Below are positions 52,683 through 56,762 of a stretch of DNA of 64,000 bases, piece by piece. Where the stretch lies: the NCBI RefSeq assembly GCF_003334355.1, contig NZ_QOWP01000008.1; one strand, written 5' to 3'. The position numbers were made by a program, and so were the translations under genes. Under the pieces are notes generated by a model. It was given only the letters and a program-made list of their open reading frames with translations. It had not been told where the DNA came from and did no database searches. Origin of the DNA: Escherichia coli (GTDB taxonomy: Bacteria > Pseudomonadota > Gammaproteobacteria > Enterobacterales > Enterobacteriaceae). The first letter of the stretch is position 1. Every line of letters starts with the position of its first letter.

Positions 52683-53132
52683 TTAAACCAGTGAACCGCC
52701 GGTCAGGAAGGAAAAGATAAGGAATATCAGCAAAATGCTGCACACGATGCCGATACCAAAAAGCAAGGTATGGAAAGCCAGCGTCCCGCCGCCAAAAACC
52801 AGCGCGCCGCGAATGCCCCAGCGATTTTCCTTACGCATACCGCCAATAAATGCGCAAAGTAGCGCAGCAATGGCCAGTGCGATACCGCTTTGATTGAGGA
52901 TTTTATCGACATCTACGTCCTCTTTTTTCTCCACGGTGGTAATTTTTTCGCCTTTTATTCCGGCGAGAAGACCTCTTTTAATTTCAGCCGTTTTGTCCGC
53001 CACGATGCTTTCAAACGTTGGCGGTGGTGCGGAGAAAGGGCCGAATGAAAAGTGGATAATCCCCATCATTAAAGCGATGGCACCGAACAGCATGCCCAAT
53101 GAACTGATTTTATTTTGAGCTATGATACCCAT
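52683..53132 (-). CDS. yidI: Inner membrane protein YidI
   Basis: 149 aa from MGIIAQNKISSLGMLFG; the track ORF extends 36 codons upstream. Confidence 0.8.
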   Translation of the reverse strand: MGIIAQNKISSLGMLFGAIALMMGIIHFSFGPFSAPPPTFESIVADKTAEIKRGLLAGIKGEKITTVEKKEDVDVDKILNQSGIALAIAALLCAFIGGMRKENRWGIRGALVFGGGTLAFHTLLFGIGIVCSILLIFLIFSFLTGGSLV

Positions 53133-54440: not shown

Positions 54441-55625
54441 TTAAACGGGCTGCCCCTGATGCGACATCCGCGTCGCCAGCGGCAGCCAGCACAGCACGAT
54501 CAACAATCCCATTAAGGTCATCAACAACCCCAGGCTGCCCTGACCGGTTTGCGGCAACATCGCAGAGAGCGACGCCAGCACGCCGGAACCAATGTTTTGC
54601 AGACCGCCGACCAGCGCGCCAGCCGTGCCCGCCAGGAAGGGGAACGGCTCCATCGCGCCGCTGGTCGCCAGCGGAAACAGCATCCCGGCACCGAAAAAGA
54701 ACAGCGCGGCGGGAACGAGCAGCGTCCAGACATTCATCACGCCAAACCAGTCGGGGATCCACATCAGCAAGCCAGCCAGCAGGCAGCAGATAACCGACTG
54801 CCACATTAACGTGGAGAAGCGTTTATTGGGACGTCCGGCAAACCATGCGCCAAAAAACGCTGCCGGAATCGGCAGAATAAACAAAATACTGACCGTCATA
54901 CTGCTCAGCCCTAACACCGCGCCCATCAGCACGCCGGAGCAGGCTTCAAAGGCGGCAATCCCGGCCAGACCGCCAATCAGCATCAGCAAATAACAGTTAA
55001 AACCGCTGTTACCGAAAAGCGTTTTATAACTGGTAAGCAGGCGCGTGCGCGGTGCATCGACCGGACGCGTTTCCGGCATCCAGCGGGCCATACTGAAGGT
55101 CACACCAGCACAAAGAACCAACAAAAAGAGATAACAGGCGCGCCAGTTCCACATCGTATCCAGCAGACCGCCGATTAGCGGTGCGAGCAACGGACTGACG
55201 AGAATCCCCATGTTTAACAGGCTGTTAGCATGGCGCAACTGTGTCCGTTCATATAAATCTCGCGGCAAAGTACGCGCCATTACGCCGCCAACGCCGGTGC
55301 CCATCCCCTGCATCGCGCTGGCGGCAATCAACACCGTCAAACTGGAGGTCGTGACCGCGACCAGCGTTGCCAGCATAAAAATGGACATTCCGACGAGGAT
55401 CACCGGTCGGCGGCCCACGCGGTCGGAAATCGGGCCATAAAACAGCTGTGAGACACCGTAAGTCAGCAGATAAGCGCCCATTACGCTCTGCACCGCCCCT
55501 TCACGGACGTTGAGATCGCGCGCCATATCGGCAATAGCTGGAATATAAATGGTTTGCGCCATCTGACCGACGGCCACGAGTAATACCAACATCAATAACA
55601 AATTGACGTTTCTTTGCCTTTTCAT
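54441..55625 (-). CDS. emrD: MFS multidrug efflux pump EmrD
   Basis: 394 aa from MKRQRNVNLLLMLVLLVAVGQMAQTIYIP. Confidence 0.95.
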   Translation of the reverse strand: MKRQRNVNLLLMLVLLVAVGQMAQTIYIPAIADMARDLNVREGAVQSVMGAYLLTYGVSQLFYGPISDRVGRRPVILVGMSIFMLATLVAVTTSSLTVLIAASAMQGMGTGVGGVMARTLPRDLYERTQLRHANSLLNMGILVSPLLAPLIGGLLDTMWNWRACYLFLLVLCAGVTFSMARWMPETRPVDAPRTRLLTSYKTLFGNSGFNCYLLMLIGGLAGIAAFEACSGVLMGAVLGLSSMTVSILFILPIPAAFFGAWFAGRPNKRFSTLMWQSVICCLLAGLLMWIPDWFGVMNVWTLLVPAALFFFGAGMLFPLATSGAMEPFPFLAGTAGALVGGLQNIGSGVLASLSAMLPQTGQGSLGLLMTLMGLLIVLCWLPLATRMSHQGQPV

Positions 55626-55798
55626 TATCACGGATGCTTTTATAAAAATAATTAGAATAAGTCACTACGCATTCCCATAAATGCGGGAGAGGAATCTATC
55701 ACATTGATGAATGTTAGCCAGATATACGCCAGGAATGGGGAATTGTTTAGCGGCAGAATATGTAAACAAAAGCGGCAATAAATGTTGCCGGGAGAGAT

Positions 55799-55838
55799 GG
55801 TAGGGCGGATAAGATGCGTCAGCATCGCATCCGACACC
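55799..55838. repeat. REP element upstream of emrD
   Basis: ggtagggcggataagatgcgtcagcatcgcatccgacacc. Confidence 0.65.
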
Positions 55839-55860
55839 AACCCGCACGCTAAATATAAAA

Positions 55861-55882
55861 GGGGAGCGGTTTCCCGCTCCCC
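55861..55882 (-). terminator. Intrinsic terminator of the tisAB transcript
   Basis: Perfect hairpin ggggagcgg-tttc-ccgctcccc with a T-rich tract on the minus strand. Confidence 0.85.
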
Positions 55883-55904
55883 TTTGGTGCGACTTGAATC
55901 TGAA

Positions 55905-55994
55905 TTACTTCAGGTATTTCAGAACAGCATCAAGCAGTTGCAGTGCTGCAACAATGAGTTTGAGGATAAGAATGGCGATATCCACCAGGCTCAT
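55905..55994 (-). CDS. tisB: Type I toxin TisB (29-aa membrane peptide), not in the ORF track
   Basis: Minus-strand translation gives MSLVDIAILILKLIVAALQLLDAVLKYLK; start overlaps the tisA stop (ATGA); SD aggag. Confidence 0.93.
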   Translation of the reverse strand: MSLVDIAILILKLIVAALQLLDAVLKYLK

Positions 55995-56104
55995 ACGCGT
56001 CTCCTGTGGTTCAGGAGCACTGCCAGCTGACGTACCTTTCCGCTGCCTGTTGCCAGCTGTTGTGCACGCGGTATCTCAAGGAGAAACGTTGTGCTTGTTG
56101 ACAT
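55991..56104 (-). other. tisA: tisA upstream ORF (37 codons; reported in the literature as not translated)
   Basis: Minus-strand ORF MSTSTTFLLEIPRAQQLATGSGKVRQLAVLLNHRRRV; its 5' end overlaps the IstR-1 target segment. Confidence 0.75.
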
Positions 56105-56228
56105 AACACAGTGTGCTCACGCGGGGTTAAGGCGCTGACGGCACCACCCGTTTCAGCCAGGACTTAGTGCGCCGGGTAACGATGCGGCCCCCGCATAACA
56201 CATTGCGTACAGTGATATTATAGAAGTT

Positions 56229-56248
56229 TACTGTATAAATAAACAGTA
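56229..56248. promoter_or_regulatory. LexA (SOS) box between the divergent tisAB and istR promoters
   Basis: tactgtataaataaacagta, a near-perfect CTGT-N8-ACAG palindrome; minus-strand TATAAT at 56209-56214 for tisAB. Confidence 0.9.
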
Positions 56249-56288
56249 ATATTTGGACAAAACGCAAACTGTGATCGATACTCAACTA

Positions 56289-56430
56289 TGCACTAAATAC
56301 GTCAAAATTCGTGCCGAAATTGCGCGTTCTGCGCGGAACACGTATACTTTCAGTGTTGACATAATACAGTGTGCTTTGCGGTTACCAGCCGCAGGCGACT
56401 GACGAAACCTCGCTCCGGCGGGGTTTTTTG
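56289..56430 (+). ncRNA. istR: IstR antitoxin sRNAs (IstR-2 about 140 nt; IstR-1 about 56355-56430)
   Basis: Plus-strand promoters (TTGGAC...GATACT; then TATACT at 56343-56348); shared terminator cctcgctccggcgggg + T6 (56408-56429); IstR-1 segment complementary to the tisA 5' region. Ends are approximate. Confidence 0.75.
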
Positions 56431-56558
56431 TTATCTGCAATTCAGTACAAAACGTGATCAACCCCTCAATTTTCCCTTGCTGAAAAATTTTCCATTGTCT
56501 CCCCTGTAAAGCTGTGCTTGTATAAATATTGTTAAACACAAAACCAACAAGGTCCCCA

Positions 56559-56657
56559 ATGACTACTTCCATGTTCAACGCAAAACTACTACCAACTGCG
56601 CCATCCGCCGCAGTGGTCGTCGTGCGTGTGGTGGTGGTCGTCGGCAATGCGCCGTAG
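56559..56657 (+). CDS. ivbL: ilvB operon leader peptide IvbL (32 aa), not in the ORF track
   Basis: Translates to MTTSMFNAKLLPTAPSAAVVVVRVVVVVGNAP, a Val/Leu-rich attenuation leader. Confidence 0.93.
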   Translation: MTTSMFNAKLLPTAPSAAVVVVRVVVVVGNAP

Positions 56658-56680
56658 GGACTGGAACAACACACGATTCC

Positions 56681-56715
56681 AAAACCCCGCCGGCGCAAAC
56701 CGGGCGGGGTTTTTC
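56681..56715 (+). terminator. ilvB attenuator terminator
   Basis: ccccgcc...ggcgggg hairpin followed by T5, between ivbL and ilvB. Confidence 0.8.
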
Positions 56716-56762
56716 GTTTAAGCACCTCCCGGAAAGTCGGCCCAGAAGAAAAGGACTGGAGC

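Follow-up and report, generated by a model that had tools for sequence, protein, structure and literature searches.

The known systems closest to the locus analysed here, tisB/istR-1 of Escherichia coli K-12 MG1655 foremost, are type I toxin–antitoxin systems. In dinQ/agrB, shoB/ohsC and zor/orz, as in tisB/istR-1, a small hydrophobic toxin is paired with a divergent, non-overlapping antitoxin sRNA and the toxin mRNA needs 5′ processing for activity; dinQ is, like tisB, also LexA-regulated (PMC3567139, PMC11264685). The hok/sok system of plasmid R1 and its chromosomal homologues is likewise of type I: the toxin is a small membrane protein, and RNase III cuts the duplex that the mRNA forms with an antisense RNA. 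Sok, however, is a cis-encoded RNA that overlaps the mRNA; it prevents translation of a leader ORF, mok, and translation of hok is coupled to that of mok (PMC4147584). The tisB/istR-1 system is unlike hok/sok in three respects: (i) there is no overlap between the sRNA and toxin genes, (ii) the upstream reading frame, tisA, is unconserved and (iii) control is exerted through a distant standby site (PMC6690012).

The mechanism published for E. coli K-12 turns on processing of the tisAB transcript. In the primary (+1) mRNA, structure at the ribosome-binding site and sequestration of the upstream single-stranded region by the 5′ end prevent translation (PMC6690012, PMC4147584). Once the first 41 nt have been removed, the resulting +42 mRNA exposes that region as a standby site ~100 nt upstream of the structured ribosome-binding site; 30S binds this site through protein S1 and then reaches the tisB ribosome-binding site. 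IstR-1 pairs across the standby site and blocks 30S loading, and RNase III cleavage yields an inert +106 mRNA (PMC6690012, PMC4147584). Without DNA damage, LexA holds tisAB transcription low (PMC2826370). According to published experiments, tisB mRNA exceeds IstR-1 after SOS induction, and TisB then enters the inner membrane, collapses the proton motive force and the ATP level, and favours dormant, drug-tolerant persisters; depolarization of the inner membrane by TisB and its promotion of persisters have been described (PMC2826370).

Here we examine a 64,000-nt stretch of E. coli DNA (the window) and conclude, with a probability of about 0.97, that it carries the chromosomal tisB/istR-1 type I toxin–antitoxin module of E. 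coli in a complete and apparently functional form. All of the parts are intact, and what the locus displays, including the S2 allele of the toxin and the presence/absence polymorphism described below, is already known.

Identity and chromosomal context of the locus

Both strands of the region were read, and a list was made of ORFs of 20 aa or more. Positions 55700–56600 are 100% identical to E. coli ATCC 8739 (window coordinates are the ATCC 8739 locus coordinates plus 52699), and the annotation of that identical region sets the locus between emrD and ivbL-ilvBN, a synteny that recurs in nine other genera. K-12 MG1655 shares with the window the chromosomal site, the parts and their order, and over positions 55561–56730 only two nucleotides differ between them, one of which lies inside the locus. 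All of the promoter and Shine-Dalgarno hexamers listed for MG1655 (PMC11264685) are found in the window. The dinQ, shoB and zor systems differ in having unrelated toxin families and sRNA sequences, whereas the ORF and sRNA of the window match the TisB and istR models specifically. A preliminary description of this DNA had read the region as a tisAB/istR SOS-induced type I toxin–antitoxin locus, and the identity and synteny, the Rfam and NCBIfam matches, the LexA box and the promoter and Shine-Dalgarno hexamers all back that reading. A 29-aa toxin, two sRNAs and a LexA box lie below ORF-length cut-offs but are worth recognizing in annotation. The coordinates are collected in Table 1, where transcript ends were placed from promoter and terminator positions together with published lengths.

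Table 1. Features of the tisB/istR-1 locus and its neighbours, in window coordinates
Feature	Position	Strand	Description and basis
emrD	54441-55625	-	RefSeq annotation, ATCC 8739
ysdE	55707-55781	+	RefSeq annotation, ATCC 8739
tisAB terminator	55858-55885	-	Perfect 12-bp G+C-rich stem, 4-nt loop, then T-run; inverted-repeat and terminator scan
tisB	55905-55994	-	29-aa hydrophobic inner-membrane toxin, S2 allele, WP_000060506.1, MSLVDIAILILKLIVAALQLLDAVLKYLK; ORF list, RefSeq annotation (ATCC 8739)
tisA	55991-56104	-	37-codon ORF between IstR-1 target and tisB; ORF list
tisB Shine-Dalgarno	56000-56005	-	AGGAGA; same hexamer is the tisB ribosome-binding site in PMC11264685
IstR-1 target	56096-56117	-	Standby region of tisB 5′ UTR, first repeat copy; ~112 nt upstream of tisB AUG
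5′ part of tisAB primary transcript	56124-56211	-	First ~41 nt removed to give active +42 mRNA; +1 placed from the -10 box
tisAB transcript	~56211 to ~55853	-	~358 nt; start placed from the -10 box (56210/56211)
tisAB -10	56222-56217	-	TATAAT; same as in PMC11264685
LexA operator (SOS box)	56229-56248		TACTGTATAAATAAACAGTA; between the divergent tisAB and istR-2 promoters, overlaps -35/spacer of PtisAB
istR-2 promoter	56254-56282	+	-35 TGGACA 56254-56259, 17-nt spacer, -10 GATACT 56277-56282; hexamers as in PMC11264685
IstR-2	56290-56429	+	Longer LexA-controlled sRNA, ~140 nt, contains IstR-1; 5′ end placed 7-8 nt past the -10 box
istR-1 -10	56343-56348	+	TATACT, constitutive, LexA-independent; PMC11264685
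IstR-1	56355-56429	+	Antitoxin sRNA, 75 nt; antisense 5′ 22 nt (repeat copy 56354-56375), then two hairpins, the second being the terminator
istR terminator	Stem 56404-56427, T-run 56424-56429	+	Terminator scan
ivbL	56559-56657	+	RefSeq annotation, ATCC 8739
ilvB / ilvN	3′ of ivbL	+	RefSeq annotation, ATCC 8739

Several features of the neighbourhood may be noted in passing. The ysdE reading frame (24 aa, MNVSQIYARNGELFSGRICKQKRQ; RefSeq) sits between emrD and tisB and is retained also in genomes that have no tis/istR; its peptide has no NCBIfam match. Between ysdE and the tisAB terminator lies a REP-like palindrome (55804–55836), which agrees with the single REP sequence known from the same intergenic region (PMC2577331). 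The palindrome gave a sub-threshold match to Rfam naRNA4 (22 bits, gathering score 59.5), and both this candidate and Pseudomonas P6, found in the ivbL attenuator region, were dropped with scores far under gathering. On the identical ATCC 8739 chromosome, a gene for an InsQ/TnpB-family RNA-guided endonuclease is located directly upstream of yidH-yidG-yidF-emrD (L001 1–370; ~52700–53070).

Promoters, LexA operator and transcripts

The LexA operator differs from the consensus TACTGTATATATATACAGTA at two positions and is the sole match in 64 kb; none of 100 dinucleotide shuffles produced one. It is located directly upstream of the tisAB -10, a CTG-N10-CAG box occupies the equivalent place in 10/10 genera, and TATAAT or TATACT is found at a fixed offset from the box across these 10 genera. 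Judged by its sequence, the toxin promoter would thus be LexA-controlled and belong to the SOS regulon, and LexA binding and SOS induction have been published for K-12 (PMC2826370). Promoter hexamers for tisAB on the minus strand and for istR on the plus strand lie on either side of the box, such that the near-perfect LexA box and the divergent promoters of the preliminary description both stand. The istR-2 promoter is the only sigma-70-like match of a promoter scan, and the istR-1 -10 is reported to be 100% conserved (PMC11264685).

The tisAB transcript delimited by the -10 box and the terminator matches the published length of 359 nt (PMC2577331). The 5′ ends predicted for tisAB (~56211) and IstR-2 (~56290) are ~80 nt apart, and the two units diverge without overlap.

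The TisB toxin and its S2 allele

The ORF assigned to tisB, which had been noted as a 29-aa hydrophobic toxin ORF, passes two NCBIfam equivalog models over residues 1–29 of 29: NF011340 with 69.9 bits (cut-off 53) and TIGR04459 with 61.5 bits (cut-off 38). It is also annotated as tisB in RefSeq. Folding predicts that the Shine-Dalgarno hexamer is largely paired, with a mean probability of being unpaired of ~0.16 in three mRNA forms; for the hexamer together with the AUG, the values in these forms are 0.09–0.16.

The single nucleotide that separates K-12 from the window inside the locus is position 55990, which on the plus strand is C here and T in K-12, so that TisB codon 2 reads AGC (Ser) in the window and AAC (Asn) in K-12. 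The preliminary description had noted a protein beginning MSL, had given MNL for K-12 and had suggested that this may be an allelic variant. The MNL of K-12 is correct, because the change at 55990 gives N2, but the roles of the two alleles need to be reversed: S2 is the majority allele of E. coli and K-12 carries the minority form. S2 has been described as the consensus TisB allele, present in 85% of loci, and S2 TisB is toxic, somewhat more so than N2 at low induction, with ciprofloxacin and persister survival unchanged (PMC11264685). In the collection that we searched, the locus is present in 4359/5426 complete genomes, and a megablast with the 50 nt around TisB codon 2 found the identical sequence in at least 3292 of these 4359; the count is a lower bound because a central mismatch destroys the 28-nt megablast seed, leaving K-12-type genomes unreported. 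The remark on S2 was thus accurate, but it describes the common form of the E. coli toxin rather than a variant of interest.

The IstR sRNAs

The full Rfam istR model (RF01400, 1–130) matches positions 56300–56429 of the plus strand with 150.1 bits (gathering score 45, E 2e-32). Together with the terminator stem and T-run of Table 1, this match substantiates the plus-strand sRNA region, closing with an intrinsic terminator, that had been proposed for this DNA. IstR-1 is reportedly 75 nt long, the length attributed to the work of Vogel et al. in 2004. In its predicted minimum free energy structure as a monomer, the first 12 nt are unpaired.

The longer IstR-2, described previously (PMC2826370, PMC11264685), contains the same antisense segment and is reported not to repress tisB (PMC11264685). 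The Rfam consensus structure pairs the GUUGAC at the start of the antisense segment with the IstR-2-specific 5′ end. We infer that IstR-2 may be inactive on tisB because its GUUGAC is sequestered in this way, which would offer a simple reason for the difference between the two sRNAs.

A direct repeat creates the IstR-1/target duplex

The antisense segment of IstR-1 and its target are two copies of a direct repeat (56096–56117 and 56354–56375) with 21 of 22 nt identical. With divergent, non-overlapping genes, a direct repeat in the DNA yields complementary RNA segments, here the 5′ end of IstR-1 and part of the tisAB 5′ UTR; for want of any overlap between the two transcription units, the repeat is the only source of this complementarity. 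The lone difference between the copies (C56107 and T56365) becomes a G·U wobble in the RNA duplex, and therefore the 22-bp helix is uninterrupted. The preliminary description had placed the repeat at 56095–56124 and 56355–56383 and had deduced ~20 nt of complementarity between transcripts from opposite strands. The repeat is real and the deduction accords with the 22-bp helix, one G·U included; the boundaries require adjustment, since the first 'gttgac' starts at 56097 rather than 56095 and the end at 56383 lies 2 nt too far for the string that was quoted. The published description is the same: IstR-1 is complementary to the tisB 5′ UTR over 21 nt (PMC4147584) and pairs with the standby site (PMC6690012).

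Duplex prediction (RNAduplex/duplexfold) between the 5′-terminal 30 nt of IstR-1 and the complete tisAB transcript finds its best site exactly at the repeat, with an energy of -45.2 kcal/mol. For 500 dinucleotide shuffles of the sRNA segment the energy is -22.0 ± 2.4 kcal/mol (best, -32.4), corresponding to z = -9.6. When IstR-1 is cofolded with a 51-nt target, the energy is -64.7 kcal/mol, compared with -32.5 and -6.5 for the monomers, a gain of about -26 kcal/mol. The stable duplex by which the preliminary description had proposed to check the pairing is thus predicted, and at the repeat itself.

Predicted structure of the tisB 5′ UTR

A core of ~56 nt in the tisB 5′ UTR, consisting of GUCCUGGCUGAAACGGGUGGUGCCGUCAG, two variable positions and then GCCUUAACCCC (~56124–56162, minus strand), has three variable positions across ten genera and is more conserved than the TisB N-terminus. 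This core is probably the 5′ structure element that an earlier study assigned to the standby site (PMC6690012).

An RNAalifold consensus for the 10 genera pairs the extreme 5′ end of the transcript with GAGCACACUGUG of the IstR-1 target. The minimum free energy structure of the +1 form agrees, with the extreme 5′ end paired to part of the target. The mean probability that the target is unpaired is 0.39 in the +1 form versus 0.48 in the +42 form, so that folding reproduces the accessibility switch weakly. The predicted structures agree with the published mechanism, though weakly.

A third, partial copy of the repeat, the 12-nt CATAACACATTG at 56194–56205, lies in the ~41 nt that open the tisAB primary transcript and shares positions with the 5′ segment for which pairing to the standby region is predicted in the +1 form. 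We considered it as a decoy or second IstR-1 site and set it aside because its conservation is confined to Escherichia, Salmonella and Citrobacter.

Conservation of the pairing across Enterobacteriaceae

Orthologous loci were reached through a search for EmrD homologues followed by exact-protein contig look-ups. Syntenic tisB and istR are found in Salmonella, Citrobacter, Enterobacter, Intestinirhabdus, Trabulsiella, Raoultella, Kosakonia, Klebsiella and Pseudenterobacter, with istR Rfam scores of 76–132 bits in these nine genera. The emrD contigs of Kluyvera, Yokenella and Pluralibacter contained neither istR nor tisB, and these contigs are accordingly not informative on the pairing. Pattern scans were less productive: an IUPAC pattern for IstR-1 orthologues, too strict in design, returned E. 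coli alone from genome contigs, and a looser pattern, run on metagenome contigs with E. coli sequence excluded, gave a single chance match in a G+C-rich coding region that had no istR.

Both copies of the repeat are present in every locus that has the system, at a spacing of 241–258 nt. When the two copies are aligned as the intermolecular 22-bp helix, 98.5% of 198 cells (9 distinct sequences from 10 genera, a small sample for covariation) are standard pairs, and sliding the register by 1–3 columns lowers pairing to 22–49%. Fourteen of the 22 pairs are invariant, and in four the variation is confined to one side and keeps to wobble-compatible changes. Two pairs are changed on both sides between A-U and G-C: at position 7, Escherichia, Salmonella and Citrobacter have A-U and five other rows have G-C, and at position 12 Kosakonia has G-C and all others have A-U. 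The three mismatched cells are at position 7 in Intestinirhabdus, position 5 in Kosakonia and position 19 in Raoultella/Klebsiella. The G-C state at position 7 probably reflects one or a few events.

The A-to-G change at repeat position 7 also touches tisA. The tisA ATG (56104–56102) falls within the IstR-1 target, and the change converts it to ACG in 7/10 genera, leaving ATG in Escherichia, Salmonella and Citrobacter. Frames read from the tisA start position in the 10 genera run for 26–72 codons and encode unrelated sequences, and the tisA peptide has no NCBIfam match. The preliminary description was right that a 37-codon ORF precedes tisB, its end overlapping the tisB start by ATGA, but this ORF should not be counted among the coding parts: its start is unconserved and tisA is reported to be untranslated (PMC2826370). 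It is probably not a real coding gene, and annotation should not treat it as one.

Alternative explanations

Two other accounts of the repeat and of tisA bear on how the locus works. The geometry of tisA and tisB resembles that of mok and hok (PMC4147584): with the tisA start codon inside the IstR-1 target and its stop overlapping the tisB start, tisA could be a translated leader coupled to tisB via the ATGA, in which case IstR-1 would cover the tisA start and not a standby site. However, the ACG found in most of the genera occurs where tisB, istR and the pairing are all retained, and direct experiments have shown that 30S and S1 bind the standby site in the target region without a need for initiator tRNA (PMC6690012). 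The unconserved start and frame and the reported lack of tisA translation therefore argue against a leader peptide of the mok/hok kind as well as against listing tisA as coding, and we regard this account as very improbable. Still harder to sustain is the notion that the 22-nt repeat has no regulatory meaning, being a chance match or the remnant of a local duplication, with the sRNA acting elsewhere. Short two-copy repeats are commonly chance matches, and the partial third copy might be counted in favour of this notion, but that copy has the narrow distribution noted above, whereas the two full copies are kept at nearly constant spacing in 10 genera with changes that are compensatory or wobble-compatible. 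The duplex energy lies 9.6 standard deviations beyond the shuffles, and published genetics and biochemistry place IstR-1 action at the 56096–56117 site (PMC4147584, PMC6690012), so that the chance of this notion being right is close to nil.

A different question is how the two copies have stayed matched. Concerted change of direct-repeat copies could reflect gene conversion instead of independent compensatory mutation, since the same pattern would be expected from either. In the full form of this proposal, the copies are matched by gene conversion (concerted evolution) and not by selected compensatory mutations, and the loss of the tisA ATG in most genera through the same A-to-G change would mark 'tisA' as a mere by-product of the antisense target. 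We consider this full form unlikely, if decidedly less so than the two accounts above; were it true, neither the nature nor the working of the locus would be altered.

Variation of the module among genomes

The 690-nt segment 55792–56481, which comprises the REP element, tisAB and istR, shows presence/absence polymorphism within E. coli. In 1060 of the 5426 complete genomes, including the type strain ATCC 11775, an unrelated stretch of 157 nt lies between the same flanks (L004 1593–1749), and this stretch has no similarity to any other locus that we fetched. Copy-number variation of tis/istR has been described before (PMC11264685).

Three further observations concern other genera. In an Intestinirhabdus-like metagenome contig (L014 1952–3292), an IS transposase gene (DDE_Tnp_1) ends ~24 nt from the istR 3′ end; the descending arm of the istR terminator and the T-run are missing (…CCTCGCTTCGGCGCT), and IstR may therefore be mis-terminated in this organism. 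In Pseudenterobacter timonensis (L022 2389–3119), a higB/HTH_3 type II toxin–antitoxin pair of the higBA type is inserted between ivbL and istR, such that two toxin–antitoxin modules adjoin. Finally, the gene calls for a Citrobacter genome (L011) and for Klebsiella sp. I138 (L021) lack tisB, an annotation gap typical for such short genes; both genomes have istR and the IstR-1 target, and an intact 29-aa TisB ORF was confirmed in the Klebsiella genome.
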